From contig JBHGNT010000009.1 of the NCBI GenBank assembly GCA_043228905.1, forward strand, positions 11,036,001-11,100,000: 64,000 bases of DNA. The letters run 5' to 3'. The DNA comes from Azolla caroliniana. Lineage: Eukaryota > Plantae > Polypodiophyta. The position numbers and the translations under genes were made by a program. Positions 180 to 62,479 of the stretch are shown one piece after another (within the stretch, counting starts at the first letter, position 1; each line of letters begins with the position of its first letter). The notes below the pieces were generated by a model that saw only the letters and a program-made list of their open reading frames with translations, was not told the DNA's origin and ran no database searches.

Positions 180-3100
180 ACGTTTCCCCTTTAGATTTCC
201 CCAAAATTTAGCACATGCATGTGATTTCTCTTGCGTTTGGATACATTGTTGAGTAACTTCCCATATTCTTCTCTTTCATTAAATAAGACTTTTATACTCG
301 TGCAAATGCTTTTGGTAATTCTCTTTATCCTTAACTACATCCAAAACCATAAGGCACTTTCGAGCTTCACGACATTCTTTATCAAACCATTTTTTTCTAA
401 GTTTCTTGGTGCATTTCCAAGATATGCGGTTGGTCGAAAAACATTTGTTTGTACATGAGAGAATGACTTTCTTGAAAGCTTCCCATTTGCATTCTAGTGT
501 GGCACCATGTTGTATCTTTGTCATTTGTAACATATCCTCAACCATTTTGGAATACATGGGCGCTTGCTTAAGGTTCATGCTCAAGTGCGGTTGTTTATTA
601 TCTTCAATATCCTTCTCATAATCAAACCTATGCATACATTTGAGATCAATACATAAAGGCCTATGATCGAATTCCGGTGTCCATTCACCAAGTGAGAATT
701 TATGTATACGATCCAAAATACCTTCGGAAAGTAACACATAGTCAATCACACTATTTCCGTTGTGTGTTCTACATGTAAAACCATTAGTGTTGGGTCATAA
801 GGAAATACCATTTGCAATAAGCAATCCGGTTCTATTGCACATTTGTAGGAGTAACATCCCAAATTGATCGAGGTCTTTTTCATCGCTAAAAGAGCGGCTA
901 TATATTTGCATATCCTCTTGCATCCTTGAGATATGTGGCATGAAAGATTCTTGTGAATCAAGTTGGAAACTTCTTGTACGAGCATTCATGTCACCAAAGA
1001 CAATAACTTCCCATTTGGATTTGAAATAAGCAAATTAATATCATCTTCTAGATTGGCAAAAGGTTGATCTTTATCCAAACAAGCATAAAAGTTAGAATCT
1101 TGATGAGGAATGTAACATCCAACTACAAAAGTGGACAAATCATTAGGTGTTTCTATTTTGAGCCATATGTAGCATTTATGTTCATCATTTTTTATGATTG
1201 ACACATATTTCTCTATTTCCTTCTTAATCAAACATGCCACCCCTCCTGGTCCTCTTCTTTGTCTTGGATTTTTCTTCCATATCAAAGAGTGTACATTATA
1301 GTTTCCTAAACCTTGAATCCCATGTTTCAACAAGAAGTGTGATATCCGAGTCATCGGTGAACTCCTCTATGCCAAATCCCTCATTCCATGGGTATCCATT
1401 GCAATTCCAAAAGCATAGTCATAAAAGGCGTGGGTTAGTCTCATAGGTCACTTGTCCCTATTTGCCTACATTTCCATCTTTAGGCACGTCCTTAACCGTA
1501 TTTTACAATCTTTCTTCATATGCTTTACAACGAGCATTTTGTTGTGAGATAGTACGATCTTCACTCACAAAGCATTGCGTACCTTTGAGGTATACCCAAA
1601 TATTTTCGAGTATGATCCGCCGCTTTGTATCATTTGTCTTTATACATACAATAGGCCTTTCTCCCGGAGAGAGTAACACCATGTTTCCTAACTCAGTGTG
1701 CCCCATATACATTCACATCTGACATCCCATAATGCACGCTAAAAGATTCACCAATGGCCTTTCCGAGGGATGCGGTTGTTTCCATACTCTCTTCTTTGAT
1801 CCCACGGACGCCAATGTTCTTTGATCGTCGTTCACGTTCTTTCAATTCAAGGAAATCTATGCTTTCTATATCCTTCTCTTGATGCATCATATGCATATTA
1901 CATGAGTTTGATACCACATCCCCACCACATACATCGGCCCATGACTTCGTTATACATACATTTTTCATCTCACTTACATCTCGCCTCATCGTGTCCAATT
2001 TTTCTTCTTTTAATGCTTCCTTTAACTCAATCTTTTTAAGGCGCTCATTTGTTTCGAAAGAAGCTCTTTTACATTCCTGAATCTCTTCATGAAATTTTGC
2101 AACCACTTGCTTAAGACTTTCATACTCAATGACAACAATTTGGAGCTTAGCATTCTCTTTCATTAACGTCCTTATCTCTTCACCTGGCTTGTTTATGGTT
2201 TGTTGAAGAGAAATCAAGTGACTCATAAGCATTTTGTCCATTCCATTGGAATCGAGATTTGTTGGTGATCTCGGCTCATTATCAATCATACTGCTAAACT
2301 TTGCGGCATTGTCGTGAAGAATGTGCTTCACAATATAAAAATGAGCTTAAATGTTGTATTTAATAATATTTGAGAGACTTCAACCCACATCCTTATATAC
2401 GAAGTACAATGTACATACCACTAGGCTAGGCTATTTATCTGTAAAAGTTTGTGCTTCATGATATAAGAATGAAGCTATATATTGTATTAAGTAAAATTAA
2501 GAGACTTGAACTCTCAACCTTGTATGCCAAACACAAAGTATACATCACTAAGCTAGGTTAGTTATTTTAAAATGCATTTTCATCATTATACTTATCCCAT
2601 ATCTATTTTCATACATGGGAGCTCAAGTGAGCATGATGGCTACCATGCATCACGTGCAATACATGTGCGCCAAATGGCGATCATGCATTACATGTAACTC
2701 ATGCATTGCATGCATGCCATGCTCCCATACATTACCATATGCATGGCAACACTTATATAAAGAGGGGCAAGGAAAACAAGAAATGATCAAGAGTGAGTGA
2801 AAAAATTATACAATCAAGTAGAGAAGACTAGCTCATTGGGTGGAGAACTTCTCGTTTCGAAGTTGAGGTCGTGGGTTCAAATCAAGGGTCGGTAGAGAAT
2901 GGGTTTAGTTTGCGATCAAGGGTTGTAAAGTTGGTAAAATACTTTGTCTCTATCTTGCTTCTTGAATCATATATTGTCTGTATCTTCTATCTATTCTCGT
3001 CTCTCTCTCATACACACATTACTCGTAACTCTTCTTCTTGCTATTCTTAACCTTTCTAACATCACCATACAAGCCTTATTAAAATATAAGTTCCTTCAAT

Positions 3101-6126: not shown

Positions 6127-6157
<31 letters not shown>

Positions 6158-7896: not shown

Positions 7897-7937
<41 letters not shown>

Positions 7938-10900
7938 TTGTAACAAGTGGTATATTATATGAAGATAAGATACAAGAGTAGCTAGGAGGTTTAAGACTGG
8001 CGTTGAACCGAATTGGTTCAGAATAATGCCATGTGCCTCTATTTATAGTACTCTTAGGAGTACTCCTAAAGTTTCTAGAATGTTCCAGCGTAATCTGGAA
8101 TATACATGAATTTCCTATGGTGAAATAATAAATGAAAATAATATTTTTTGTATTATAATACATGATTTAATGGTAAGGGTTCAACCCACGTAACACAAGG
8201 TCATGGGTTCGAATCCTTTTGGAGCCATATCATGACACTATCCCCCCCATTAAACGACGAGTGTTGTGAGTCGTCTTTGATTGAGGACCTGGTTTGTTTG
8301 AATATTGATGATGGAAGTCTTCAACAAGAGCTCGAGCATTCGTCAAATTCGTCACTGGTTCCCAAATACGCTCGCTTGGACTATATCCTAGCCAATCAAC
8401 CAAATAATAGTGCTTGTTGCGAACAATCTTAGATCAAGGTGAAAAGTAACATCATTAATTTTTTTGTTAATACGGAAAGGGCCTAACCGTCAATAAACCA
8501 ATTTGTCACACAGTCCAGTAGTCTCGTCATAATAGCCATACTCAATCTTCAATATTAAAAGAGGATGGAAGTCGATGACGATCCGCATAGTCCTTCTGTG
8601 TTTGTTGGATGCAATGTAGGTGGGTAGATATTTCTGCCTGAATTTGTCGTAACCACTCCAAATGATCCACTGCACTAGGATTTGTAGGTAACTCCAGAGT
8701 TTCTAATACACACTAGCGAGGATGATAGCCGATATAAGCGTAGAATGGCGTAACCCTAGTAGAGGAGTGGATAGAATTATTATAATAAAATTAAGAAAAG
8801 TGTAGAATATCTACCCAATCATCTTGTTGATAGCTTAGAAAACACCGAAGATATAGTTCTAGCATTTGATTGGTGCGTTCTGCTTGTCCATCTGTTTGGG
8901 GATGATAGCTAGAGGAGAGATTGCAAGTGACCTTGAGCATTTTAAAGAGATGCTTCCAAAATTTAGAGACGAATTGTGATCCACGATCACTGATGATACT
9001 GTCGGGAAGACCATGATGCCAAAATACTTCACGCATAACAATTCTAGCGGTTTCTTCACTGGTGATTTCTTTAGTATAGGGCATGAAATGTGCCATCTTC
9101 GTATATCGATCTACCACTATTAAGATTCCATTGATGCCCCTTGAGTCCGGAAAACTATGATAAAATTGAGAGAAATAAATTGCCATGGTTTGCTTGGGAT
9201 TGGTAATGGCTCCAACAAACCATATGGATGATGTCACGGAATCTTCGCTCTACAACATGTATCACATGTCCGAACATAGTCTTCGACAAATCTTCACATA
9301 TGAGGCTACCAAAATGATCATTGTACTAAATCTAATGTTTTAGTACTACCAAAATGTTTGGTTGTGTATGTGTCATGACAATTTTGTACTATTCGAAGGC
9401 AACACGAACCATTGAGAACATACAAAAGTTTCTTAAAGAAGAGTAATCCATTATGACATTCGAATTGCTGATAATCTATACCTGGTTGTTGTGATCGTGA
9501 ACAAGATGCTCGAGAAGGATCAATTTGATCTAGAATAGCTTGAGCGAAAACATCCGTCTTCAAATCTTCATGTATGGTATCGATAATGCGGGAATCCAAT
9601 GGAGTGTCAAAGACCCACGTTGCTTGAAGTCGTGTCGGACCCAGGATTACTTGATTTCGATTGTCGAAGGCCAGATCACCAGGATGAGGATCTAGATACG
9701 AGCATCGTGATAATGCATCCGCCTTCCCCTGTTGCTTGCCCGGATGATATGTAATCTTGAAGTCAAAATGGGTGGGGAATTGGGCCCACCAGGCTTGTCG
9801 TCTATTTAATATGCGAGCATTCTAGAAGTAGGCAAGATTCTTGTGATCACTGAATACAGTGACTTGATGAGGAGATCCTTCTAAAAAAGGCCTCCATTGT
9901 GCAAAAGAGTCCACTATTGCTAAGAGCTCCTTGTCATGTATCTCATAGTTGATTTCGGCGGCGTCAAATTTCCGCTAGTGGAAAGCCAAGGGATGTAGCT
10001 TCTCATCGTCGCCTTGTTGTGAAAAAATACTACCGAGGGCAAAACCGGACACGTCTGCTTCAATGATAAATGGTTTTTGTGGATCAACATGAGCTAAAAC
10101 AAGAGCTGATGTAAATGTTTTCTTGAGACCCTCAAAAGCCGTCCACTTCCTTAGTCCAAACAAACGATTGCCCCTTCTTTGTAAGTTGTGTGAGCAGTAA
10201 AATAAGCTTTGAGTAGTTTTGTATAGACTTGCGATAGAAGTTTGCGAATCCTAAAAGGCATTGCACATCTCACAATGAACATGGAGTTTGCCACTCCAAC
10301 ACAGTTTGGACTTTAGTTGGATCCATAGAGATGCCTTCCGATGAGATGACATAGCCTAGAAATTCCACTTGATTACAGTCAAAACTACACTTTTCCAGCT
10401 TTGCATAAAGACCATGTTCTCATAGTTGTCTTAGTACTAATAGTACATGAGAATCATGCTCCTCTTGTGTCTTTGAATAAACTAGCAGATCATCCAAGTA
10501 GATGATCAAACAGAAGTCTAAAAGATATCGGGATATATCATTTGCCATGCGTTGGAAAACCATTGGCGCATTGGTGAGGCCGAATGGCATAACCATATAC
10601 TCGATGTGCCCATATCAGGTGCGGAAAGTTGTCTTCCATTCATCTCCCGGTCGAATCCGTGCGAGGTTATATGCTCCTCATAAGTCGATTTTTGTAAAAA
10701 CGTTTGCACCATTACTTCTTTCTAAAAGACTCAAGATCAGGGGAAGTGCATACCTATTCCTGATTGTGACCTTATTCAAGCCACGGTAATCCATGACTAG
10801 ACGAAGTGATCCATCTTTTTTCTTGACAAGAAAATAGGTGCACCGGCTCAAGATTTCAAATGTCAAATGAACCCGTTTGCCAAATTTTCCTCTATGTAGG

Positions 10901-12907
10901 CTCGAAGAACTTCAAGCTCAGTTGGTGACAAGTTATAGATCAGTCCCCATGGTGGCTCTTTTCCGGGTTGTAAGTCAATGGAACAATCATACGGTCGATG
11001 ATGAGGAAGAGTACTAGCTTTTGCCTTATCAAAAATGTCGGCGTAATGATGATACTTCTTTGGAAGTTGAATTGTTGACTCCTCCTTAGCGGTGTTGGAA
11101 GGTTTCAATGATATTGTGAATACAAACATTGCTTCCTTGCCTCCTTCGTCACACAATTGATGTAGCAAAATCGTTGAAATCTTATGAGTAGATCCTCGAG
11201 GTTGTCGATACCCGATTTCTCTTGTTCTCCGATCTAACCCCAAAACAATTGGATGTTTTGGATTACTAATTATATTAAATGATACTAAACATACCAAGTT
11301 ATTTAGGACAACATTAATCAGCTCTAACTCTTCTAAGATATTTCTGGAAGCAATGGGGCGACCATCAATGTCTTCTACAGAAGTTGGGCAAGGGAGTTTT
11401 TTTAGGGATATCTTATTAGCTTGGGCAAAATTCTTATCCATGAAGCAAGAATTCGATCCGGAATCTAGGAGTGTCAAGACATGTACTTGAGGATTACTTT
11501 TAGTACTAATTGCTACTTGACCTAGGAAGACATTGTTAACTTGCTTAGAGGGAATGGAACCACTAATGGGTTGCACAGATCTAGGATTGTTCAACCAAAC
11601 GGCGCCTATTTTGGCTGGACTTAGTCGTTTAACTCTTCTTCTATATGACTAAGAACTTCAAATTTGTTTGATAGGCTTGGGCTATTAGGACTATCTGACA
11701 CTCCTAATGAAATTGACTCAGGTTTAATACTATTAGTACTAGTGGCTATTTGATTTACCTATCTTCTTGGCCTATGAGGACAATTCGTTGCAATATGCCC
11801 CGGTCCACATCAATAAAGACATAGTCGATTTGCTCGGCATCGTTACTTTTCCTCTTCCGATAATGGTCTGCAATGATGTGTGGTGTTGATTTCCATCGGA
11901 GTTGGAGTATTTGCTAGAGATGCATTATATGAATCTCTTGGAAACGTTTTTGCTACAACTGAGGCGTAGGTGGGCTCTGATCTTGTCCTTGGCATCTGGA
12001 ACTAACATTCCGAACGTCATTCGAAAAGGCGGTTATTGCATTGTACCGCTCGACTGATTGCTTTTGTGAGCGACTTTGGTTCTTCATGGAACGTCAAGAG
12101 TAAATCCTTGACATCATTATGTAGGCCATAGCGAAATTGCTCCATCAATTCTCGGTCATCCCAAGGAATATTGGTGGCAAGAAGACGGAAATCTGTGGCA
12201 TAAGTTGAGGTCGGCCGATCACCTTGACGCAGTCTTCGGATTTTGTTGATTGCCATCCTAACACTATCAATATCTCCAAAACATGCTTTAAACTCTTCAA
12301 AATTATTTAACAATGGAGAGCCTTTTTCTAATAAAGGGGCAAACCATGCTAGAGTTGTGCCACTAAGTAGCATGCATACTAGTCCCACTCGTGATGCATC
12401 GGTGGGATATCGAGAAGGATGCATTTGAATCACCAAACGTACCTAATTAAGAAATCCTCTAAATTGTGATCACGTTCCATCAAACTTCATAGGAAGACCA
12501 ATCTTGGGTTCTTTGGGAGTCCCTTGAGTGCTTGATCCCTGTTGTTGTAGTGACACAATAGTTGTTTCAAGTTGTTGGACACATAACGCCAGCTCCCCAT
12601 GTTGTTGTTGTTTTTCTAGAGCTATTTGTTGAAGATCCCCCAACAGACATTGATTTTCTTGTTCGAGTGCTACAAAATTCTCTTTTAAGCATTGGAGCTC
12701 CGAGAAAACAGATTGGTATTCTTGAGTGCTAACAATTGTCATTTAGTAGGAAGGATAAGGGGATTCGTATGAAGGGAAAGAAGGATAAGAGGATGAGAAA
12801 TTCGGTTCAAACTGTCAGAGATAGTACTAGAGACTGGGAGAATTAGTACTAAAGATAGAGAGGAAGAATGAGGATTAGTACTAAGAAGGGGAAAAGTGTG
12901 TGGAGAC

Positions 12908-12967
<60 letters not shown>

Positions 12968-13267
12968 TGATAACAAGTGGTATATTATATGAAGATAAGA
13001 TACAAGAGTAGTTAGGAGACTTAAGACTGGGGTTGAACCGAATTGGTTTTGAATAATGCCATGTGCCTCTATTTATAGTACTCTCAGGAGTACTCCTGAA
13101 GTTTCTAGAATGTTCTAGAGTAATTTGGAATATACAAGAATTTCCTATGGTGAAATAATAAATGAAAATAATATCTTTTGTATTACAATGCATTGTTTAA
13201 TGGTAAGGGTTCAACCCATGTAACACAAGGTCATGGGTTAGAATCCTTTTGGAGCCATATCATGACA
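7897..13267 (-). mobile_element. Degenerate Tcn1-like chromovirus (Ty3/gypsy); 5' LTR 12813-13267, truncated 3' LTR ~7897-8237
   Basis: Fragments of gag (KIGLPMKFDG), protease (LLDSGS), RT ([12 protein letters not shown]), RNase H (EADVSGFALG) and integrase (IISDRG, HPQTDGQAER). A PPT lies next to 8237 and the LTRs are similar to each other. Many stops and frameshifts. Confidence 0.9.
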
Positions 13268-15938: not shown

Positions 15939-16261
15939 GAATTGAACCTTCGCCCTTTCGTTACAAGGTGAGCACCATAACCGTCAAACTTGTTATTTTC
16001 TTTATATTTTTAATTCTTATGCTCTCTCTCTCTCTCTCTCCTTTTTATTGTAATTAGCCTACCTTAATGGTAAGTCGTTGCACTACTACCACTACATCTG
16101 ACCTTCAAAACCCAATTTTTTTAACTCTCTATTGCAACGCCCTAGTGGTTAAATTGTTTACACTACTAGCACTACATCTTGGGTCTTGCAAGACCCAATT
16201 TTCTTACATCTCTATTACTCCATAGATATCTCTTATTTCAGTAGATGCCACTGTGGAATGT

Positions 16262-16318
16262 AGAGGTTGAATCCATGACCACCTGGTCTCTATTGGGCAA
16301 CCTTACCAACTAAGCTAC
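16262..16318 (-). repeat. tRNA-derived SINE-like / Pol III module
   Basis: Minus strand reads TAGCTTAGTTGG (A-box) ... GGATTCAACC (B-box-like) at tRNA-like spacing. Confidence 0.45.
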
Positions 16319-19300
16319 CTCCATCTGAGCGCTCTCTTTATATATATATATATATTTCTTTCTTTCTTTTGGTATATCTCACACTATTTTTTTTCAGTAT
16401 ATCTCGCCATCTATCTTATGATATATTTTATGAGGACACTCCATTCTCTTTTTATTGTCAAGGGAGGCTCTAGCATGTGTGCCATGTGGTGCACATGTAG
16501 CAGAGTTCTTGGCTTAGATTATACAATGTATAAAGTTATGTATAGATTACAAAATATATCATGAATATTAGTAAAATAATAAGCTTCGAGTTTTATCACA
16601 TGAGGTGGATGTTATAGGTTCAAATCTTCTTTTGTCCATGTGGTGTTGTGGGCCCATTCCCATGATCAACTATCATTGCCCTTTTCATTGTCGTAGCTTT
16701 TCACATTCTCCTCTTTCAGATCCTCCTCCATCTTTCTACCCTTCCTCAAGCAAGAAGAGCTCAACAAATAACCCAAGTAAAGAATAAGAAAGAGAAGTTG
16801 CCAATAACCACTCTCATAACACACACAAGAACCCTAAATTCAAGAAAGATAAAGAAGAAAATGGTTGAAGCCTTAAAACTCTAAAAATAAATGTTCCAAA
16901 CCTTTAGACACCCAAAATCCTTTAAAACGCCTAATCCAAAATGAGCCCTCAACTCCCCTTTTTATAGTGGGAGAACCTTCCAACACAAAGTGTTGGGAAT
17001 TTGATCAAAGGTTTTGCCTTACCCTTTATACCGAACGCTCACTTTTGTTGCAATACCAAAACAAATGTTTCACTAATTTTGGACTAAATCCATATCTCTT
17101 GCATCTTAGTTATGCAATGTATCAACTAGTACTAAGCAAAGCTATAATAATACTCTCCTTTGCTGGCAAATTAGAGCAATAGATTCTTCTTGAACACTTT
17201 TTTCCACCAGAAGTACGAATTAATCATGGTCTATATTTTATCACTATGGTTTTTTATTTATGGAGTGGGATCAATAACTAATATACTTGAAGGATTCATA
17301 TAATATGTTGAATCAAATATGCATCATTATGTTGCTTTATCTATTGATTTTTAATAGAGATTTGAAGTCAATAACCAAGTTCCAATCTTGCAAACGATTT
17401 TGTCTCCCAATATGGAAAAGAAACACAATCATGGACCAAATCCTCTATCTATTTTATGCATGATTTCTCTCTGAGATAAAAATAGTGTATACCTATTTAG
17501 ATTTCACTATCAATGACGTTGAATAACCATCACTTATCATTATATCGTCGACTTGCTAAGCACTCTGTTTAGAAATATAGATCCTTGACTTTTGAGGTTC
17601 TCAATCCATTTGTGTTGAACTAACAAATCTTGATTCCATTTTTTTCCACTATATATGTTGTGTGACTTTCTTCTAATTTTGAATCAACTTTGTGGTGAAA
17701 GGAGAGCATCAAATAATGTTATTATACTTGGCATATACTACATCACAAAGAGTGGTTGTCCAAGATACAAAGAAATTTTGGTTTATATTGGTTTATACTT
17801 GTAAGTTGTCACATACTACATCCCAAAGAGTGGTTGTCCAAGATATAAAGAATATTTGGTTTCATGTTCTATCCTTAGGTGGTGTGTTATTTTTTCTTAG
17901 TGATACACTCCATATTTTTTCTTATTTAACTATTCATGTAATACTTTCATTCCTTGTTGATCAAGTGGAGTTTCCACTTTCTTTATTTTTTGGGTTTCAA
18001 TATCCATGTAATGATATTCATGCATTTTGTGTCTCTCTTTCGCTCCACTCCACACTCTCACACCTTTTCTTGTTTGGATCAGTCATTTTGTTTAATGTAT
18101 GTCTCTTTCTCTATGGGTCAAGTCGGTCTTGTGTGGACCTCAATATCTCTCACTAAGAGGGATATCTATTTCTTTGAATGTTCTTGTTTGAATATCATCC
18201 AATTGTCTAGGCACCTCTTTACCTTTCCTTTCTTCGTAATCCAAAGGAAGGCAAAAAAGCATAATTGAGACTCATGATGAACTTTGGAGGTAAGAAACAA
18301 ACTGCAATTTGCAAGCATTTCCTAAATAGTAAACTTGTTAGGTTGTAGACCATCATATTTACCACTTAACATAAAGGAGCTATTGGAAATTACAAATGTC
18401 TATTCCTCTATTGAAGATATGATTATAAATTTATATGTGTGTAAATGTGCAATTTGTATCTAGATGATCATGTGTGTGCGAATACTATGTATGGATGTAG
18501 GTATACGTGTATGACATGCATTAATGTGTGTGTGTGTGTGTGGGTGGGTTGGTGTGTGTTATATGCATGCATTAATGTTTGTATGCATGTCTTATAGAAA
18601 CAACCTACTAGGGTCGTATAATTTCTCCATCACCCATGTATATTAAAAATTAAATGAGAACATAGGTAAAGATTATTGGTGAGGAGCCAGGGCCATGGTT
18701 TTAACGAATCAAGCTTTACTACATAACTTATATATAATTATTCATCAAATATATTTTCTTATGTCGGCTCATTGTTTCCCACATTGCCCATATCACATGT
18801 TGAGTTCAACTCATCCTTGATTTTAAAATCTCTTAATTTCCCTAGGTTGTTGAATATTCTAAGGAACCGGGAACCACTCTATTTTTTCGTTTTAGTATGA
18901 GCTTGTACCTTGTGATCCTCATCAAGCATTCCCAAAATGCCATTATTCTTCATCTTGATGAAATTTTCTCACACACCATCCTTCTCTATGTCAATGTAAT
19001 GTTTGCACATCATCATGGCACAAATGATTGTAGTTCCAAAAGAAAATTGTGAACTATAATTACAACTTTTAACCAAATAGAATTTGATTATATTACACTC
19101 AATAGTTCTTCAAACAAGTGCAAGATCCACCATCAAAGAGTAGATTAAAGTGCTTGTTTATTAAATGTCATGGCTTCTTATTTGTAGTTGTTGAATCACC
19201 AACCATGTGTCTCAATTGTTAAAGCATCACCTTGTGCAATGTTAATATGAACCCGTTTTTGGGTGAGTTGGCCGTAAAATTCCATTTGCATGTAAGCTAT

Positions 19301-35422: not shown

Positions 35423-35580
35423 TGTCATGAACACATGACCATTATGGCGTCACCCGGACTTGAACCTCGAACCTTGTAATTCATACTTGAAAACCTCAAC
35501 CATTAAGATAGCTTATTGTTATATGAAACAATAAAAGATACTTCTTGTATTACATTGATTATTGTAAAAACTCTAGATTA

Positions 35581-35678
35581 TTCTAGAATGTTCTAGAATG
35601 TCCTAGAGCATTCTAGGTCTAGAACATTCTAGAACATTCTAGAAATCTCTAAGCTATTCTATAGGAACCTATAAATAA
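35581..35678 (+). promoter_or_regulatory. Heat-shock-element array followed by TATA box in the chromovirus LTR
   Basis: TTCtaGAAtgTTCtaGAA and GAAcaTTCtaGAAcaTTCtaGAA (alternating nGAAn units), with TATAAATA at 35670. Confidence 0.75.
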
Positions 35679-35899
35679 GCGCATACATGTATTCTCAAAT
35701 CAATTCGAATCAACACCAGTCTTTAGCTCTCATTACATATCTTGTATCCATTCTCTTTCTTTCTCTATCTTATACATCCATTCTTCTCTATCCTTCTTCC
35801 ATCACTCTATCTTTTATCCTTGGTTCTGACAGTTTGATTCGAATTCTCTCTCTCTCTCTCTCACTCTCTCTTATCCTCCTTTGGAACCATCCTAAAACC

Positions 35900-37063
35900 A
35901 TGGCTGCCATTAACTCAGAAGAATATCTCACCCTTGTTGCAGAAATGGAGAACCTTAAATCCAAGTTCGCATCTCTTGAAGTAGAGAATCAACGTCTACT
36001 TGGGGATCTACAAAAGGTTACTATAGAGAAGCAACAACAACAAGAGGAGTTCACGCGACGAGTGCAACAGTTAGAGTCGACAATCGTTGTGTTACAACAA
36101 CAAAGGGTTGAAGGTCATGGACTTATCAAGGAGCCCAAAATTAGCCTCCCAGCTAAATTTGATGGGTCGAGGGCGCATTTCCGAGGTTTTTTGAATCAAG
36201 TACGGTTGGTGATTCAAATGCATCCCGCACGTTATCCAACAGATGCATCACGAGTCGGGCTAGTGGGCACTTTATTGACTGGCATAACGTTGTCGTGGTT
36301 TGCTCCATTGCTAGAGACCAATTCTCCTCTACTGAATAATTTCGAGGAATTTATCAAGGAATTTAAGGCTTGTTTCGGAGATACTGATGGGGCGAGAACA
36401 GCTATCAACAAGATTCGTACACTTCGTCAAGGTGATCAACCAGCTTCAACATATGCTGCCAATTTCCGTCTCATCGCAAGCGATATTCCTTGGGATGAAC
36501 AAGCCCTAATGGAGCAATTCCGTTCAGGCCTTCGTAGTGATGTCAAAGACTTACTTCTTACCTTCCCCGAGGATCCAAGGTCACTTACAGAAGCTATTAG
36601 TCGAGCAATACAGTGTGATAATCGCCTTTTTGAGTGTCGATGTGAGCGACAACAACAAATAACAAGATCTAGATTCACACCAACTTATGCATCAGTAACG
36701 GCGCAATCATCCCCAAGGCAAATGTATAGCCCTGCTCCAACTCCAAGGCAAACACATAGTCCAGTCCCAATGGATAGTCCTACACCCATGGAGATCGATA
36801 TGACTCAACGACGAGGACCGTTGTCAGACGAAGAGAAGCAACGTCGTTGAGCAAACCATCTGTGCTTATATTGTGGAGGTCCAGGACATATAGCCATTCA
36901 TTGCTCCCGTAGGCCGAGACGTCAGGTAAATCAAATTCATTATGACAATAAAAATGAGTCCAACATTTTAGAAGCAGTTAGTGAATCTAATATTATGAAT
37001 AATCCACCCTTGTACAATAAATTTGAAGTCTTAAGCCAATTAGAAGAGGAGTCAAACGAATAA
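35900..37063 (+). pseudogene. Chromovirus gag (premature TGA at 36848; CCHC knuckle follows)
   Basis: MAAINSEE...KISLPAKFDGSR...LRQG...PMEID, then LCLYCGGPGHIAIHC in the same frame after the stop. Confidence 0.9.
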
Positions 37064-37105
37064 GTCCGGCCAAAATAGGAGCCATTTGGTTGGACAACCC
37101 TAGAT

Positions 37106-40100
37106 ATGTACAACCGATATGTACAACCTAGTGTGGGTTCCATTTCTTCCAAGCATGTTAGTAGAGTCTTCTCAGCCCTAGTACAAGTTAGGACACCCAG
37201 TTGTCAACTTCAAGTCCAAGCCCTCTTAGATACTGGAGCCAATTCTTGTTTCATGGATAGAGATTTTGCCCAAAAACACCAAATATCCTTGCATACACTT
37301 CCTTGTCCAGTTTCCGTAGTAGTGATTGATGGACGCCCCATAGCTTCCGGGAAGATATTTGAAGAGTCTGAGCCAATACACATACTCTTGGGTGATTTAG
37401 GATGTGTAGTTTCCTTTAACATAATCCGTAGTCCTGAGCATCCAATTGTCCTCGGTTTGCCATGGTTCGAGCTACATAACCCTAGAATCGATTGGAGGAA
37501 GCGATAAATTAGGTGCCCTTTAGCAGAAAATATCATTCTCAAGGATCGAACTCGGGATTATCCTCCCAAAGTATATAGTTCTACCGATGCACCATATCCT
37601 TCTCATCAAATTTCAGCCATCACATTGCATCAATTGCACCAAGTGGGAGGCAAGGAGGACCTTTTCTTATTTGCAGTATCAGTGACACCTTCTAGTGTCA
37701 CTCAAGGGAATTCAGACATCCAAATTCCCAAAAAATATCAAGACTATGCTGATGTTTTCGACAAAGTCAAAGCTAGTGTTCTTCCAAAGCATCGGCCGTA
37801 CGACTGTCCTATTGATCTCCAACCAGGAAAAGAGCCTCCGTGGGGTCCGATTTACAATTTATCACCCACTGAGCTTGAGGTTCTTCAAGAATACATCGAG
37901 GAAAATCTTGCACATGGGTTTATTCGACATTCAAAGTCTCCAGCTGGTGCTCCTATCTTTTTTGTGAAGAAAAAGGACGACTCCCTTCATTTGGTCGTGG
38001 ACTATCGAGGCTTAAATAAAGTCACCATAAGGAATAGGTATGCTTTACCTTTAATCTCCAATCTCTTAGAACACATTGGTGGGGCAAAACATTTTACCAA
38101 AATTGATCTAAGGGGTGCGTATAATCTTGTTTGAATTCGGCCGGGAGATGAGTGGAAAACAGCGTTTCGTACTCGGTATGGTCATTTCGAGTATACAGTC
38201 ATGCCTTTCGGGCTCACAAATGCACCTGCCGTATTCCAACATATGGCAAATGACATCTTCCGGGATTTCTTGGATATTTTTCTAATCATCTACCTAGATG
38301 ATCTATTGATTTACTCTAAAACAAAGGGGGAGCATGATATACATGTGCGGCAAGTACTTGAACGCCTAAGGAAGTATGGTCTTTACGCCAAACTTGAGAA
38401 ATGCAGTTTTGATTGCAAACAAGTGGAATTTTTGGGATACACTATTTCATCCCAGGGTGTTTTCATGGACCCGGCAAAAGTCCAAACAATATTGGAATGG
38501 AAACCCCCATGCTCAGTTCGGGATGTCCAGTGTTTCCTCGGATTTGCGAACTTCTATCGCAAATTCATACATAATTATTCAAGCATTGTGTTGCCCCTTA
38601 CTCAACTCACCAAGAAAAATCAAGCATTTTTTTGGAGTATCGAAGCGGACAAGGCTTTTACGCAGCTGAAAGAGGCATTCACATCAGCACCCATCCTAGC
38701 ACATATTAATCCTGAAAAGCCATTTACTATTGAGGCGGATGCATCAGACTTTGCATTGGGGAGTATCCTATCGCAACCAGGCGAGGACGGGCAGATACAT
38801 CCAGTCGCGTTTCACTCGAGAAAGTTTACTGTTTCGGAGATAAACTATGAGGTGCATGACAAGGAGTTACTAGTTGTGGTCGACTCATTCGAGCAATGGC
38901 GTCATTTTCTAGAAGGATCACCTCATCAGATTATCATTTATAGTGATCACAAAAATCTCACATATTTTCAAACAGCTCGAGTATTAAATAGACGACAAGC
39001 TCGGTGGGCCCAATTTCTAACGCGTTTCGATTTCAAGATCATTTTTCGCCCCGGAAAACAACAAGGGAAAGTAGATGCTCTGTCTCGGCGTTCGTATCTA
39101 GCCCTTCGACCTGGAGATCCGGCCTTTGACAATCAAAAGCAAACTCTCCTCGGGCCATCAAAGCTACAGGTAACAACAATTTATGCCACACCACTTGATT
39201 CTACCCTTCTTGAAACTATTCGGCAACAACTTCATTCGGATGATTTTGCTAAGGATGTCTTAGCCCACTGTGGTTCAAGTCGTCCATCTTGCTCCACATT
39301 TCCAGGGTCATCTCAACATTATCAGGACTTCAAGTGGCAAGATGGTTTACTCTTCTACAAGAATCTCCTTTATGTCCCCGACGGATCACCCCGACTTCAA
39401 GTGTTGGAACATTGTCATGATGCCCCCATGGCTGGACATTTTGGTATTTCCAAGACCATTGAGCTGGTGAAACGTTCATTTTGGTGGCCTCACTTGCAAA
39501 AATTTGTCGAAGATTATGTTCGCACTTGTGACACCTGCTGTCGCGCCAAAATACCCCGGCATCACCCTTATGGCTTACTACAACCATTACCCCCTCCCAA
39601 CAAGCCATGGCAGTCTATTTCTATGGATTTCATTACGGATCTGCCACCTTCCAAAGGCTTTGATACTATTTTAACAGTAGTGGATCGGTTCACCAAGATG
39701 GCACATTTTGTACCATGTGTAAAGACCATCAATAGTGAAGAAACTGCAGATCTCATTATGCGTGAAGTGTTTCGCCATCATGGTCTCCCGAATGATATTA
39801 TTAGCGATCGAGGTCCTCAATTTATCTCACACTTTTGGAAGCACCTATGGGCAGGCCTCAAAATCTCTTGCAAACTCTCTTCGTCTTATCATCCACAAAC
39901 TGACGGACAAACAGAGCGCACAAATCAAACGCTCGAGCAATATCTTCGATGTTTCATTAGTTATCAACAAGATGATTGGAGTAAAATTTTACATCTTGCC
40001 GAGTTTGCATACAACAACACGGTCCACTCTTCTACCAAAGTTACACCTTTCTTTGCCTACACCGGCAACCACCCTCGATGGTGTATACTGGATCTTCCCG

Positions 40101-40732
40101 AGGTGTCACGAAACCCTAGTGCGGCGCATCACCTCCACCGACTACAACAAATCCAGTTCGAGTTATCGTCACATCTTCAGAAAGCGCAAGCACACCATAA
40201 GACCAATGCCGATCAACATCGTCTTAAGTCTCCGTTTAAGGTTGGTGACCGTGTATGGTTGCTTCGTCGTCACATCAAGACTACCCGACCGTGTGCTAAG
40301 CTTGACTATCAACGCTTAGGTCCTTTTGTCATCACGGCGCAGATTAATGATGCAACATTTCGTCTTAACCTTCCTGCACATATGCGGCTTCACCCTGTCT
40401 TTCATAGCTCTCTTTTGGAACCTTGCCACACCTCTTTAATTCCTAATCGTGTCGTGCCACCACCGCCTTCTATACAACTTGTGGACGGCCCCGAATACGA
40501 GGTAGCTGCTATTCTCGATTCTAAGATTGTGCGCAATAAGCTTTATTATCTAGTTGATTGGCTTGGTTATCCTCCGAGTGATCTCACTTGGGAACCCATC
40601 GATAACGTTTGTAATGCTGAAGCTCTGGTCAACGACTTCCATCGTCACTATCCAAACAAGCCCGGCCCAACAATGTTAACGCCGACTTCCACTCGGCGTT
40701 CTCGAAGGAGGGATAGTGTCATGAACACATGA
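37106..40732 (+). pseudogene. Chromovirus pol: protease, RT, RNase H, integrase, chromodomain (stops at 37505 and 38132; 13-bp duplication 37103-37128)
   Basis: Motifs LLDTGA, YLDD, DASDFALG, HHCC zinc finger, ISMDFI...SDRG...ERTN, GPF and EYEVAAILD...YLVDWLGY...TWEP. Confidence 0.95.
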
Positions 40733-41114
40733 CCATTATGGCGTCACTCAGACTTGAACCTCGAACCTTGTAATTCATACTTGAAAACCTCAACCATTAA
40801 GATAGCTTATTGTTATATGAAACAATAAAAGCTACTTCTTGTATTACATTGATTATTGTAAAAACTCTAGATTATTCTAGAATGTTCTAGAATGTCCTAG
40901 AGCATTCTAGAACATTCTAGAAATCTCTAAGCTATTCTATAGGAACCTATAAATAAGCGCATACATGTATTCTCAAATCAATTCGAATCAACACCAGTCT
41001 TTAGCTCTCATTACATATCTTGTATCCATTCTCTTTCTTTCTCTATCTTATACATCCATTCTTCTCTATCCTTCTTCCATCACTCTATCTTTTATCCTTG
41101 GTTCTGACAGCAAC

Positions 41115-45500: not shown

Positions 45501-48500
45501 ATAATATCCTACATATTACAATAGATGGTATAATGGTCAAGAGCTCGACCTATGTAACCTAAGGTCATGGGTTCGAGTCTTGTCATATCATGACACTATC
45601 CCCCCTTTAAAACGACAATTGTCATTAGTCGTTTTGGATTGAGGACCCAATTTGTCTGGATATTGACGATGGAAGTCTTTAAGAAGAGCACGAGTGTTGG
45701 TCACATTCTCTATCGGTTCCCAAGTATGCTCGCTGGGACTATATCCTAGCCAATCGACTAGATAGTAGATCTTGTTGCGAACAATCTTGGAGTCAAGGAT
45801 TGCAACAACCTCGTACTCAGGTCCATCTTCAAGTTCAATTGAGGGTGGAGGTTGTGTAATACGTCCTGGGATGGTGCTATCTTGATAGGGTTCGAGGAGA
45901 GAATTATGAAACATTGGATGTATCCAAAGTTGCGGAGGTAGATTGAGATGAAAAGCGACATCATTAATCTTTCCAATAATATGGAAAGGACCTAATCGCC
46001 GATAATCCAACTTCTCACATGGGCGAGTAGTCTTGATGTGTCGTCGTAGTAGCCATACCCGATCTTCGACGTTAAAACTGGATAGAAGCCGATGACGATC
46101 CGCGTAAACCTTGTGTGTTTGTTGAGCTTACTAGAGATGAGTAGATAAATCCGCTTGTATCTTGCGTAACTACTCCAAACGATCCTCTGCACAAGGATTT
46201 GTAGGTAACTCTAGCGTTTCAAATACACACCACCGGGGGTGACAACTCGTATAAGCATAAAATGGCGTAACTGGTGTAACTTTAGTCGATGCGTGGGCAG
46301 AGTTATTATAGGCAAATTTAGCGAAGTGGAGAATATCCGAACAATCATCATGATGATAGCTTATAGAGCACCGAAGTACTGCTCCAGTGTTTGATTTGTT
46401 CGTTTTGCTTGACCGTCTGTTTGTGGGTGGTAGCCGGAGGAGAGGTTACAAGTGACCTTGAGCATTTTAAAAAGGTGCTTCCAGAATTTCGAGACGAATT
46501 GGGGTCCACGGTCGTTGATGATACTATCGGGAAGGCCATGATGCCGACATACTTCACGCATGACAATTTCGACGGTTTCTTCACTAGAGATTATCTTAGT
46601 AGATGGCAAGAAATGAGTCATCTTCGTATATCGATCTACTACTGTTAGAATCACATTAAATCCCTTCGAGACTGGAAGATCTATGATGACATCTAGAGCA
46701 ATGTATATTCACGGCTTGCTTGGAATTGGTAATGGTTCTAATAAACCATATGGATGATGCCTTGGCATTTTCGCTCTGCAACATGTATCACAAGCTCGAA
46801 CAAAATCTTCGACAAATTGCCACATACAGGGCCACCAGAATGATCGTTGTACTAAGTCTAATGTCTTAGTACTACCAAAATGCCCAATTGTATATGTGTC
46901 ATGATAGTTTTGGACTACTCGAAGGTAGCAAGAACCATTAGGAACATACAAGAGTTTTTTAAAGAATAGTAATCCATCATGGTATTTGAATTGTCGATAG
47001 TTTGTACCTAGTTGTTGCGACTGTGAACAAGATGCTCGAGAGGGATCAATTTGTGCTAGAATGTCTTGGGCAAAAGCATCTGTCTTCAAGTCCTCACATA
47101 TGGTATCGATATCATGGGAATCCACGGGCATGCCAAAAACCTGTGTTGCTTGTAGTCGTGTCGGTCCCAAGATTACTTGTTTTTTATTATCGTAAGTTGG
47201 CTCATAGGGAGTCGGTGCTAGATACGAACGCCGTGATAATGCATCTGCCTTCCCTTGCTGCTTCCCCGGACGATATGTAATTTTGAAGTCAAAATGCGTG
47301 AGGAATTGGGCCCACCGAGCTTGATGTTGATTTAACACACGAGCGTCTTGAAAGTAGGCAAGGTTCTTATGATCATTGAATATGGTGACTTGATGAGATG
47401 ATCCCTCTAGAAAATGCCTCCATTGTGTAAAAGAGTCCACTATTGCTAATAGCTCCTTATCATGAATTTCATAGTTGATTTCGGCGGTGTCAAACTTGTG
47501 TGAGTGGAAAGCCATGGGATGAAGCTTTTCATCATTTCCTTGTTGTGACAGAATTCTACCCAATGCAAAATTTGATGCGTCAACTTCAATGATGAATGTT
47601 TTTTTTGGATCAACATGAACTAGAATAGGAGCTGATGTAAATGCCTTCTTAAGATTCTCAAAAGCCATGTCCGCTTCTTCAAACCAAACGAACGATTGTC
47701 CCTTCTTAGTAAGTTGTGTAAGAGGCAAAACAAGCTTTGAGTAATCCTTTATAAACTTGCGGTAGAAATTGGCAAAGCCTAAAAAGCATTGCGCATCTCG
47801 CAACGAATGCGGAACGTTATCGTAGTGTAATTCGCACACTACGTGAAAATTACATTTTTGTCCCTCCGGATGGAATCGGTAAGGAGAACCGGTAAGAACT
47901 GGATCAAGCAGAACCGGCAAGAGCCGGATAAAGAAGGCCGGAAAGATTGTTACATGCATAGGGCAGGATTCGAACCTTGTACCTCCATGTTAACGATTAT
48001 TAAGCCTTACCACTATACTAGCATATTATGAATTTTAAAGTTATACTAAACTTTATCCCATGTAAATATTCTAGATATGCATGGTACAAAAAGTTATTCA
48101 TGCATACACACTCGAGTTAAAAGAAAAGATGGGATAGAAAGCTAATCATGCACATGTAGTGTGCATGAAAACTAAAGTTAGGAAAAGCATGATGCTTGCA
48201 TGTGATAAACTTAGACTCTTCCAACACTATATAAGGAAGAGAGAAAGATGTATAATGGTTGTTGTTTTTTTTTTAGAAGGATTGATTAATACAAAATATT
48301 CGTGGAATTCCCGATTTTACCATCTAATTCTCTCTTACAATCTAATTACCCATTAATACATTATACTCGTGGGATTCACGAGTTTCATATCTTCTTCTTA
48401 CAATCTCTTCGTAACAAACATGATCTCATATTCTTCTTTCTCCTAGTCCAAAACCCCAACGGTTCCCACCCGACTCATGCAAATGATCTGACACCGAAAG

Positions 48501-50832
48501 GCACGACACAAGTGGTGAACTTGACATGAACACAGGTGGCAAGGAGATGGAAAATCAACCGGAGGCTAACAACATGATGATGATGTTCGAGCGGATGCTT
48601 CAGGAACAACGTGTGATGTCGGAGATAGCGACGGCAGTAGAGCGGCTCGTGCAATGGATCGGGCAATTCAACGGAAAGGACGTATCACGCTATCTTCGGG
48701 ACTACAAGGCGGAAATGATACGGTGCGGGATTTCGGAAGGACCGCAAGTGACATCCTTCAACCGGGTAGCTACCGACGGGCTTCAAGCATGTATCCACGG
48801 GCTACGACAACAAAATCTGACGTGGGAAGCGTTTGAAGAGGCGCTAAAGACCACGTTCGCTATCGAGGACTCCTCCAAGGCAACGCAGAGAGGATTCGAG
48901 GATTGGGTGGAAACGCCGGACAAGGGGATGAAGGTCCTCGATGTGTTTTCGGCATTCGAAAGTCGGTTCGAGAGGTTGTTTGTGAGAGATCAAGCTATCC
49001 TCACACCGGACAAAGTTATCATGTTCTTACGAGCCGTAGACATCCGGGACCAGAAGGATCTTGGAGTGCTTCTAGAGGACACGACTACCGAGAGTGACCT
49101 CACCAAAACATGGGAAAGCGTGCGGGATATCGTCGCGCGATACACAAAGAGGGGGCAATGACTTGCCAACAAAGAAAAGAGGGTTTTGGAACCGATTTCG
49201 AAACCGAGATTCGGATCGGAAGACCATTAACCGCGGGCTCGGGAGACTACGACCAAGAAGGGAATCGATGCAACCACGGTGGAGCAATTGCTGAAGGAAA
49301 TGGAGAATCTGAAAATCGCGATGGTGAAGAAGACGAAAGCCCGTCCCACAAGTTCCAAGTTCATGGACTGTCGATGCATATGGTGCGATAGCACCAAACA
49401 TGATCGGAGAGATTGCGACGAGCACAAGGAGGCGTTACGACAGGATCTTATCTACTACGAGGGAAATCGGATTCATTCGATGGATTCTCGGAAGCCACTT
49501 CGACCGAACTTCCGGAAAGGCGGCATGAAGAAGTTCCTAGAGGAGGAGATCATGGCGAAAGACAATCATGCGACAACCGCGGGAATACGTGTGGGGGAGT
49601 CATATGCAGCAAAGGCGTCTTTTTGGCCGGAAGTGCTAGAAATTTCGAAGAAAGCCGACCATGATGAAATCCGAAGCGCCGCGGAATGTATTCGGGAAGC
49701 TACGGGATGGGAGTGCCCCGTAGATAAGAATAGCGTACATGCGCTATGTCAATTGCATGAAGTGTTTGTGGATGAAAAACGACGGCACACGGATGATGTG
49801 GCCGGACCATCAAAGACACCGGAAAGCTAGAACTCCGAAGGGAAGGGGAAAGGAAAAACAATTCCGGCATTCAAACTCGCTTCGGACATCGAACAATAAA
49901 CGGACCTAAAGAAGGTGTTTGAAGAGAGAATCCTTGATAGTCGGGTGGAATTTTCGCTTCGGGAATTACTCGGAATAGCGAAGATGGAGTTCCATGACCT
50001 TCTTGTGGATCTCGTGAAGAGAAAAAGACAAAGTACGGAGGAGAACGCTCCAAGGGTAAATCCGAACATGGTTTTAATGAATGACACCGAAGTGGAGGAC
50101 GAAATTCCGAACTCCCACTATACAAGGCCTCATTGGGCACATGCAATTATGGAGACTCCGGTCCAAATCGGCAACATCAAAGAGCCCGTGCTAGCGTTGA
50201 TTGATCACGGGTTGGAGATCAATTTGATGTCCAAGGAGTTCTACCGGAAGGGGAAGTGGCCTATTAACACCAATCATGGATGGAAGATCCGGACGGCCAC
50301 TAAAGCAACGGAAGATCTATTTGTGGCTTGTCCGGATGTGATGGTGAAGATCGGGAATGTCGAGATTGACCAAAATTTCTTCGTACAAGATGAGGTCTCA
50401 CATTCCGTGATCCTCGGGCAACAATTTATCACGGCATCACAGATGGAGACGAAGGTGCTCGATAGCGGTGCGGCTTTCTCACGAATTCGGAACCAAAGCG
50501 GAGGGAAATCCGTCCAGTTCCTAATTGTTCCGGCAAATCATGAAAGGAACAAGAGAGAGCTCTTGTCCCAAACAAGGATGGATTTTTAGAGCGGACTGTT
50601 GCAGAGTGGGGAAGTGATAGTCCGAGAAGCCCTGATACCCCACACAGGAAGAAAACTCTCAGAGCAAAACAAGTATGAATCGGTCCGAATGGGGCATCCA
50701 CGTACACAGCCATAACAGGAGGAATGAAGAAAGAATACCGAAAAGTGCAGGATAAGTTACGGTCGGCATCAATAATAAAAGAAGACGACGAAATTGTGGG
50801 AATAGTCAAAGAAGTGTTCTATGGGAGCACAC

Positions 50833-51560
50833 TGTCGTGATGTTTTTCATCCATGGTGAGAAAATCGAGCAGGATAGGGAAAACGAAGATGTGCAACATT
50901 GCACATGAACTTATGGAAATTGTAACATAGGGACAAATAAGCAAATGTAAAGTGTAAGGAGTTAAGGTGCTCTACAAAGTCGTTAAGTGTAAATGTGATG
51001 TGCACTTTGTGGACTAGAGGGAGGTACATAGAGAATGAGTGTAAGAGTGATGGGCATTGAGTAGGACGGCTAGAAGAGAGAGAGTTAAGGCCCATCAATC
51101 TCGAGATCGGGGCAAATATTCTCCTTTGAATGAAAGGGGAATTGACTACTCCTATTGTATTGTGCCTCACCCCTTACCACTATAAAAGGGAGTGAGGGGT
51201 CCCTTTTGAGGTTGTTGCCTATTTTGCGTATGAGAGGTATACCACTTAGTCTAGAGTTCTTACCGTTTTAGGGTTAGGGTTTCGTTTAGGGTTTCCTTAT
51301 TCATCTTCGGTTAGGGTTTTCTCATAGTCGTTTGGTGCGGCCCATGCGGCCACCATTGTTGTAATCATTCGTTTGTTTTAATATCACTTGTTGAGTATCT
51401 TGCCTCCGTTGATCTCTCTTTCTATGTCATGGTCTTATTCTTTCCTCTTCTCCTCTTGAGCTAAGCTTCCATATCATATCTTATTCTTTCTCCTCTCCTC
51501 CCTAGTTTGAGACCCCCGTGGTTCCGCCCCTTCTACACGCACGTGTGTAACAACGCGACA
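50833..51560 (+). mobile_element. Solo LTR (TGTCG...CGACA) inside the gypsy pol
   Basis: Flanks are ACAC/ACGC, and removal restores the frame FYGSTLQWLEEL. TATAAAAG lies at ~51181 and TTAGGG telobox-like motifs at 51267-51320. Confidence 0.85.
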
Positions 51561-52143
51561 ACGCTACAATGGCTTGAAGAGCTCGCGGAAGATACAAGCC
51601 AGGGAAACCGGGTAATTCCGGTGGAATCGGTCGAGATGTACGAGATCATTGCGAAAATGGGGCTAGATGCTCTTCGCAAAGAAGAAGCAATGGTAAGTAC
51701 GAAATACAAGACCGTGGAGAAGAAGGTGAAACCGGCTGCGGGACCACTACTCGCTGGTAGCGAACAAAAGAGGAAAGAAGTCTCGGGAGATCCGACACTT
51801 CGGAAGTCTGTGAATATCGGACATGCCTTCACGGATGAGACCCGGAAGAAACTTCGGATCGGTGGAGGTGGTTTCCTTTTACAAAATGAAGAAGAACGAT
51901 TCCGTAGGATGTTGGAACAACATGGGAAAGCATTTGCATTCACATCCAAGGAGATAGGGTGCGTTGATCCGAAGATAGTGGAGCCGATGGTGATCTTCAC
52001 GATTGACCATGTGCCATGGAACCTGAAGCCGATTCTGGTGCGGTGGGTACATATTCCCAAAATCATCGACTTGCTCAAGGAGAATGTGGCGATGGGGATT
52101 CTAGAGCCATCAAACGCTCCGTACTCAAATCGATGGTTTACGG

Positions 52144-58005: not shown

Positions 58006-58040
<35 letters not shown>

Positions 58041-58626
58041 GCTCACACACGGATAGACAAAGAAGCGCGCGGGAACGCAGCCCAACCAACACAAGAGACA
58101 CAAGTTGGGCAAGAGATAGAGTATAAGAACGCGTATATAAATATATGTATGCAGATGACTCGAACGGTTATAGCCGATCAGGTCGGCGAGATGGGTGTCG
58201 ACGCCTGATCACCCACGCACACAGGGGAGTAAGATGGAGATTCTGTCGGAAGCACACGGGCGTTCCACGGAGCAGAATCAGCCTCTCGAGAACCTGCGCA
58301 AAGAAAGCTTATGGAGAACGACAAAGGAGAAGAGCTCGGTTCCAATCCGACAACACTTCGTCCCCTCTAGCGTGTGATACCTTCTCTCCTCGTCTCCCTC
58401 TCTTTTATAGCTCAAGGAGGGAGGCCGCCTTGCCCGTTTACATCACATTAATTCTCTATCCTTTCGGACAGAGATACTCCTCGATTCTCCCTATAGAATA
58501 TTGCTACCTAGGATTTGACCTTTGTGCCTACCTATCTACTGTACCACAAGGGGCGTGCCCACGTGTAAGGGCCGGTTTACACACGCTATACACGGTTTGC
58601 GCCTGGGGACGGTTTTCTTCACGACG
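52144..58626 (-). mobile_element. tRNA-Trp-primed gypsy with internal RT deletion (LTRs 52144-52832 and 57926-58626; TSD ACGG)
   Basis: Similar LTRs with ACGG on both sides; the host frame RWFT|VPKKNG is restored on removal. The PBS TGGTGAACCCGACGTGAA (57904-57921) is complementary to the 3' end of plant tRNA-Trp. Gag, protease, RNase H and integrase ORFs are present. Confidence 0.95.
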
Positions 58627-61600: not shown

Positions 61601-62479
61601 TTAAGCCTTACCACTATACTAGCATATTATGAATTTTAAAGTTATACTAAACTTTATCCCATGTAAATATTCTAGATATGCATGGTACAAAAAGTTATTC
61701 ATGCATACACACTCGAGTTAAAAGAAAAGATGGGATAGAAAGCTAATCATGCACATGTAGTGTGCATGAAAACTAAAGTTAGGAAAAGCATGATGCTTGC
61801 ATGTGATAAACTTAGACTCTTCCAACACTATATACGGAAGAGAGAAAGATGTATAATGGTTGTTGTTGTTTTTTTAGAAGGATTGATTAATACAAAATAT
61901 TCGTGGAATTCCCGATTTTACCATCTAATTCTCTCTTACAATCTAATTACCCATTAATACATTATACTCGTGGGATTCACGAGTTTCATATCTTCTTCTT
62001 ACAATCTCTTCCTAATGAACATGATCTCATATTCTTCTTTCTCCTAGTCCAAAACCCCAGCGGTTCCCACCCGACTCATGCAAACGATCCGGCGCCGAAA
62101 GGCACGACAACGCGATCTTCCATTCATCTCCTGGTCGGATCCGTACGAGGTTATATGCTCCCCGTAAGTCGATCTTCGTGAAGAACCTTGCACCATTGAT
62201 CCGTTCTAAAAGACTTGAGATAAGGGGAAGTGCATACCTTTTCCTGATTGTGACCTTATTCAAGCCACGGTAATCCACAACGAGATGAAGTGATCCATCT
62301 TTTTTCTTGACGAAGAAAATGGGTGCGCCGGCTAGAGATTTCAAATGCCGAATGAAACCATTTGCCAAATTTTCCTCTATATAGGCTCGAAGGACTTCCA
62401 GTTCGGTTGGTGACAAATTGTAGATCAGTCCCCATGGAGGCTCTTTTCCCGGTTGCAAATCGATGGGGCAATCATACGG

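Follow-up and report, generated by a model that had tools for sequence, protein, structure and literature searches.

Backward-facing tRNA-type promoter boxes in the LTRs of Azolla retrotransposons: candidate TFIIIC sites

Near position 8163 of the stretch examined here (a 64-kb window of 64,000 nucleotides from the Azolla caroliniana assembly), a retrotransposon LTR carries what look like the A and B boxes of a tRNA gene, pointing away from the element that contains them. Why would an element with its own promoter keep such boxes? A sequence-only reading had proposed a tRNA-shaped Pol III module at the U3 edge of chromovirus LTRs in five copies, and all five were found, antisense to elements E1, E2, and E3, with their ends 10-22 nt away from the start of the LTR; scored over the first 170 nt of the respective LTR, 5/5 copies exceeded all 200 shuffles. 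The details it quoted stood only in part: the copies are present, but the copy at 13193 has a damaged B box (C56 to A) and an A box that differs from the one quoted, and the A boxes of the two minus-strand copies start at 35510 and 40804. A zero-mismatch A-box/B-box scan of the window returned three matches, namely two of the known copies and one at 48020. A profile scan gave 36.5-44.2 bits for the five copies against a best null of 17.7 bits in 20 shuffled windows; this profile was trained on the same LTR families, and leave-one-family-out scores were 16.0-41.9. At a threshold of at least 13 bits it returned 13 sites: the five E1/E2/E3 copies, both E4 LTRs, three in the repeat at 2201-3061, two free copies near 16 kb, and one weak B-only site. 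The module is thus more widespread than the five copies first noted (Table 1), and neither E5, a relative of E4, nor the copia LTRs of the window gave a match to the profile. Elsewhere, profile matches of 20-22 bits in the protease-RT linker of loci L014-L018, and one in L060, were set aside as chance or unrelated.

Table 1. Modules and the elements that carry them, in window coordinates
Feature	Position	Strand	Details
Module, 3' LTR of E1	8163..8227	+	A box 8163-8173, AGGT 8198-8201, B box 8206-8216
Module, 5' LTR of E1	13193..13257	+	B box damaged, C56 to A
Module, 5' LTR of E2 (element on plus)	35445..35510	-	
Module, 3' LTR of E2	40739..40804	-	
Module, 3' LTR of E3 (LTR starts 45595, minus)	45526..45580	+	
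Further module, antisense, 5' LTR of E4	47966..48020	-	strict-scan match at 48020
Further module, 3' LTR of E4	61567..61621	-	B box C56 to T
Two tandem antisense modules, LTR-like repeat 2201-3061	2376..2555	-	upstream of TATA box
Sense-oriented module, LTR-like repeat 2201-3061	2829..2883	+	downstream of TATA box
Free-standing module copy	16245..16326 (site at 16317)	-	81-84% like the module of the L075/L043 LTR family
Chromovirus E1	7897..13267	-	broken ORFs; 5' LTR 12813-13267
Chromovirus E2	35423..41109	+	LTRs 35423-35831 and 40717-41109; 5-bp TSD GCAAC
Gypsy E4, non-chromovirus	47818..62109		5' LTR 47818-48508, 3' LTR 61399-62109
LTR-like repeat	2201-3061		TG..CA ends

The window contains three chromoviruses, E1, E2, and E3. 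The LTRs of E1 start at 13267 and 8237, the latter being the 3' LTR, which follows the PPT and is truncated near a CT repeat. E2 is 5.7 kb long and encodes Gag, RT, RNase H, integrase, and a chromodomain; a PF00385 chromodomain follows the integrase in both E2 and E3. No tRNA primer site was found in E1 or E2, and both show 12 nt of self-priming complementarity, in which bases that follow the 5' LTR are complementary to a part of the LTR immediately past the TATA box, the pattern described for Tcn1 (PMC6317226). The label Tcn1-like (Tf1/Sushi group) rests on this structure and was assigned without reference Tcn1 sequences; a chytrid protein at 53% was among the few named matches. Palindromic TTCTAGAA-type repeats lie between the module and the TATA box of E2 (35582-35643 and 40876-40921), and similar palindromes occur in the U3 of several other families. 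The reverse transcriptase of E4 is only 27% identical to that of E2, Pfam found no chromodomain in the E4 frames scanned, and this element has a TGG-type primer site and a 4-bp target site that fits NCGN, as reported for Phygy. It is one of several nested non-chromovirus gypsies (47818-62109, 52144-58625, and 62475 onward) whose target sites are 4 bp long and of the NCGN type and whose primer sites are of the TGG type, which matches tRNA-Trp; it is the only one of them with the module. Neither a TSD nor a matching locus was found for the LTR-like repeat at 2201-3061.

We compared 14 LTR families, each by one representative chosen by hand (12 chromovirus families, E4, and the LTR-like repeat), seeking an A box only 42-48 nt upstream of the B box. 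Besides the B box, the bases kept were T8 (14/14 families), A14 (13/14), G18 (12/14), and G19 (11/14), and A58 was kept in 14/14; the alignment was anchored on the B box, which makes its invariance partly circular, and the family counts are not independent because the families are related. The four bases A44-G45-G46-T47 (AGGT) were absent from the detection pattern, so their signal is not circular, and here we found 54/56 matches against 14.1 expected. Mean pairwise identity among the 14 families was 0.93 at positions 44-47 and 0.36 in both flanks; in the spacer it was 0.31, the background level. The distance from T8 to G53 was 44-45 nt in the 12 of 14 families that have an A box, the other two being B-box-only; this spacing is stricter than TFIIIC binding should require, a point against the TFIIIC reading. 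Comparison of boxes with flanks, a check that the sequence-only reading had asked for, shows much stronger conservation in the boxes than in the flanking LTR from one family to another. The set is also a natural mutational scan that places positions 44-47 within the promoter.

Within the E1 family, whose module region is present in sequencing runs labelled as four organisms (441-861 contigs per run), no variant at 5% or above was listed for 8197-8209, and 13 of 23 spacer positions were variable. Positions 8100-8144 were likewise without variants among those listed, so conservation within the family is not special to the boxes and this table alone is not decisive. At the CpG of the B box, the allowed change G57A accounted for 47-64% of contig depth in the four runs and C56T for 5-11%; C56 is critical, and C56G cuts TFIIIC binding 370-fold (PMC11811891, available sections). 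We infer that purifying selection acts in the replicating master copies. Module-bearing families are abundant, with summed contig depths of 10^4-10^5, whereas the longest individual contigs among those listed reach about 5-60; neither figure is a copy number.

The proposed tRNA shape did not hold up. ARAGORN called no tRNA at the modules, the Rfam tRNA model matched none of the window copies at E values of 10 or below, and together these tools found only two true tRNA genes in the window, both outside the modules. Stems paired at the level of column shuffles (D stem 27/56 against 28.9, anticodon stem 30/70 against 30.3, T stem 31/56 against 30.2), with weak residual pairing in the T stem (Watson-Crick pairs only, p=0.04) and the acceptor stem (p=0.09); three true tRNAs from the loci scored 20/20, 20/20, and 14/20 in the same test. 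The module at 8163..8227 ends in a remnant of the tRNA 3' strand, up to position 73, and the CCA that had been taken as terminal in E1 and E2 falls, counted from the T loop, on tRNA positions 71-73 rather than 74-76 and is absent from most families; a retrocopy of a mature tRNA with its CCA tail was rejected. A second primer-binding site was also considered and rejected. No terminator was common to the 14 families: T4 occurred within 35 nt in 7/14, at 81 nt in one, and nowhere in the stretch examined in 6/14, and T5 was found in none of the 14 over that stretch. Features of a SINE present in only some copies (TSD, tail, patchy presence) were not found either; no direct repeat of at least 7 nt flanks the module in any of the 14 families, the module is in both LTRs and in nearly all clade members, and the contigs that skip it, among those listed for the E1 family, are single contigs. 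Judged from its sequence, the module is a selected DNA promoter rather than a tRNA. The central claim of the earlier reading, a retained TFIIIC/Pol III-type module, is borne out at this level, as boxes and spacing have outlasted both spacer and stems, and selection for TFIIIC-type binding is very probably responsible.

To place these elements among relatives, metagenome contigs were scanned with the SH3-chromodomain region, and the best 80 of 415 confirmed stretches were taken, representing 75 loci, many of them near-copies of one another and 10 without a visible LTR; nine distant loci from a viral collection (31-68% in the best segment) served as outgroups. In an integrase-chromodomain tree of 28 chosen rows, from which near-duplicates and distant outgroups were left out, module-bearing elements formed two clades (I and II), each supported at 100/100, and clade II adjoined a module-free clade at 93/95. 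Using generic patterns within the first 140 nt of the LTR (B box with at most one mismatch, AGGT with at most one mismatch), we found an antisense B box with upstream AGGT near the LTR edge in 31/35 clade I LTRs, 9/10 clade II LTRs, and 0/20 others; the sense-strand version of this test gave 0, 1, and 0. Across the LTRs of both clades the module was antisense in 40/45 and sense in 1/45, and the A box was retained in 27/35 clade I LTRs. Both LTRs carry the module in E1, E2, and E4 and at loci L026, L030, L054, L062, L071, and L072. At L054 the modules lie at 595, 5598, and 10614, in three LTRs about 5 kb apart, which represent either an LTR-sharing tandem array or an assembly artefact. The module cannot be called a chromovirus feature as such, since the non-chromovirus gypsy E4 has it and other Tcn1-like relatives (0/20 LTRs) do not.

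A single origin of the module-bearing chromovirus clades was not rejected by the AU test (p=0.103), so we make no claim of independent captures within chromoviruses. The module has been lost at L041 and has decayed at L033, L036, L040, L045, and L049, and the clade II families L054 and L062 retain the B box and AGGT only. The clade II family L075 has a look-alike of its module inside the window; the L063/L075 module pairs at 6/7 acceptor positions, scores 27.8 bits with the Rfam tRNA model (cut-off 29), and looks like a younger capture. Together with the free copy at 16245-16326, whose flanks are unrelated to the L075/L043 LTR, this better-preserved module suggests that capture or renewal recurs. 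A second copy outside recognisable LTRs, at 15938-15991, is followed by a long T run; the two free copies may be SINE-like donors or fragments of LTRs.

Present in many distantly related LTR families, the backward tRNA promoter boxes likely recruit the host factor TFIIIC and so would keep the element's own promoter open. The feature itself is real, and comparative support for selection on a TFIIIC-type promoter is strong. The preferred reading starts from what the alignments display directly (the position and antisense orientation of the module, conservation of its boxes and spacing, loss of its stems, and its distribution) and holds that the module is a host TFIIIC site, with TFIIIB added where the A box is intact, which shields the LTR Pol II promoter from heterochromatin or holds it open; we put its probability at about 0.6. 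On this view a tRNA gene or SINE head would have been captured in the U3 of autonomous LTR retrotransposons and retained there as a tRNA-derived type-2 Pol III promoter made up of A box, AGGT, and B box. It faces outward at the LTR border, upstream of the Pol II TATA box; the B box lies 5-59 nt from the LTR edge at the chromovirus loci and 168-262 nt from the promoter TATA, which is on the inward side (this range sets aside two earlier AT-rich matches and one truncated LTR), and the DNA on the TFIIIB side is 71-87% AT. TFIIIC would bind the B box and positions 44-47, and TFIIIB would be positioned by the A box over the AT-rich DNA that separates the module from the TATA box; any Pol III transcription would run outward, away from the TATA box. 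The conserved bases coincide with those that TFIIIC recognises in DNA. According to the available sections of PMC11724288, the B box gives TFIIIC binding and the A box places TFIIIB, yeast TFIIIC makes a base contact at position 47, and substitutions at +44 to +47 affect either binding or transcription. The 5' LTR copy, which adjoins host DNA, would be the functional one, and as reverse transcription copies U3 into both LTRs, each new insertion would bring its own boundary. The notion of a built-in boundary leans on barriers known from yeast and animals, not plants; in yeast, TFIIIC-bound tRNA genes and ETC (extra TFIIIC) sites are described as heterochromatin barriers (PMC12409998, in the part available). 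The module is dispensable in places, as seen at lost or decayed loci, in the B-only clade II families, and in the E5 and copia LTRs that have none.

In an unlikely alternative that nevertheless accounts for several observations, the module is an active Pol III gene and selection acts on its antisense RNA, which might, for instance, modulate silencing of the element or target the genomic RNA close to the PPT. The A box, needed for TFIIIB placement (PMC11724288, in part), is kept in most clade I LTRs, the upstream DNA is AT-rich, T4 occurs 11-19 nt past the B box, the place of a tRNA terminator, in 4/14 families, and foamy viruses produce Pol III RNAs from U3 (PMC3993851, in part). No product structure or sequence is common to the families, however; 6/14 have no T4 and 14/14 no T5 in the stretch examined, a transcript from the 5' LTR would enter different flanking DNA at every insertion, and B-box-only families persist. 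A DNA site is favoured over an RNA product because the stems are lost, the 3' truncation varies, and B-box-only families exist, so that the sequence leans toward a role at the DNA level.

Quite improbable, in our estimate, is a role in integration, in which the module would either receive insertions of elements that home in on Pol III genes, as a landing pad, or tether the cDNA end to TFIIIC-rich chromatin. The chromovirus module does lie close to the cDNA end (5-59 nt), and true tRNA genes were found near element fragments in 2/46 loci scanned. Against this, 0/4 nested insertions of the window lie inside a module-bearing LTR, the loose ends with the best support among those listed upstream of the A box consist of subfamily LTR sequence and not of foreign insertions, and the module of E4 lies about 150 nt inside its LTR.

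Neutral survival is another reading, in which the LTR would simply carry the remains of one or more ancient tRNA or SINE insertions. It is very unlikely overall and, as far as the comparisons go, largely refuted for clade I. The free copies (16245-16326 and the one ending at 15991), the apparently younger capture of L063/L075, and the occurrence of losses would all fit a relic, but AGGT, boxes, and spacing persist beside a spacer that is down to background identity, G57A is amplified and C56T is not, and flanking direct repeats of at least 7 nt are missing from 14/14 families. The Ty3 primer site is bipartite, and its 3' part is the model for a last reading, the least probable of all, in which the antisense tRNA sequence on genomic RNA pairs with a host tRNA for packaging or dimerisation: antisense orientation, U3 position, and conserved bases common to most tRNAs agree with it, but chromoviruses self-prime, positions 49-51 and 59 of the would-be duplex vary freely, identity to three true tRNAs is only 0.24-0.52, the fixed box spacing plays no part in pairing, and A58, which as m1A58 in tRNA cannot base-pair, is kept in 14/14.

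Among the nearest known relatives of the arrangement are non-autonomous TRIMs. Helenus/TRIMp3 (Kojima 2024, PMC10886601, available sections) has tRNA-like LTRs and is taken here together with Cassandra and Ajax; as in the elements described here, tRNA-derived sequence is in both LTRs and conserved around boxes A and B, with no working tRNA. Helenus itself, however, is 311-1263 bp long and primed by a tRNA, and transcription of the element is proposed to be driven by its boxes (PMC10886601). The hosts here, by contrast, are coding elements, namely chromoviruses of 5-6 kb and a non-chromovirus gypsy; their TATA promoter is separate from the boxes, which point away from the element. The same source holds that autonomous partners must use Pol II promoters, yet that "not a few" Repbase LTRs resemble parts of tRNAs. 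Foamy virus U3 miRNA cassettes are likewise A/B-box units in the U3 of an autonomous retroelement, but according to the accessible text they give defined hairpin RNAs with terminators (PMC3993851), and the fern modules share neither product structure nor terminator. A further comparison is with tDNA barriers and ETC sites, type-2 boxes that include B-box-only forms and are proposed to act as DNA elements (PMC12409998, in part); those are fixed host loci of yeast and animals, whereas the candidate fern site is mobile and in a plant. The Tcn1 clade shares the chromodomain integrase, lack of a tRNA primer site, and self-priming; the available portions of PMC6317226 and PMC2864245 report it from mosses and lycophytes, with negative PCR in ferns, and make no mention of a Pol III module. 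The literature searched, which did not extend to subscription papers and Repbase notes, did not describe A/B-box modules in antisense orientation for any autonomous LTR retrotransposon of plants.

If TFIIIC does bind, the module would give autonomous plant retrotransposons a cis-acting resistance to silencing, and natural variants within one genus (A+B, B-only, lost, and C56-mutated) would offer a direct test of TFIIIC sites as barriers in plants. Because the families are abundant, they could be a source of numerous TFIIIC sites and could swell the count of tRNA pseudogenes; we found no statement of excess tRNA pseudogenes in a fern genome in PMC6786969 and its 9 supplements. A broader extension, tentative and in our view possible rather than probable, is that unrelated autonomous LTR retrotransposons of the fern lineage have repeatedly captured and renewed divergent TFIIIC/TFIIIB promoters as anti-silencing boundaries, that thousands of mobile TFIIIC sites shape host chromatin, and that the surroundings of a tRNA gene, which Ty3-like elements have to reach by targeting, travel with these elements.

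Several further observations were made in passing. Locus L024 has a tRNA-Asp gene at 128-201, within a GC-rich stretch, and after it (about 430-490) degenerate repeats of the gene's 5' portion, and is possibly another tRNA-bearing repeat; at L034 (552-906), tRNA-Asn and tRNA-Thr genes lie about 100-450 nt from a truncated clade I element. Loci L048, L051, L052, L055, and L056 form a clade of chromovirus-like pol genes followed by an extra open frame in place of PPT and LTR. An organelle-type insert at 3969-7228 of the window, with tRNA-Ser(GCT), tRNA-Met(CAT), and a decayed bacterial-type SSU rRNA, is probably mitochondrial DNA in the nucleus; the tRNA genes at 3969 and 4437 were considered as module donors and rejected, as both adjoin this organelle-type rRNA insert. 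Finally, exons of a UDP-arabinose 4-epimerase-like host gene were found at 24846-28097 and make a fern the likely host, with fern proteins closest (82% and 81-85% for two exons; moss 77% on the second).
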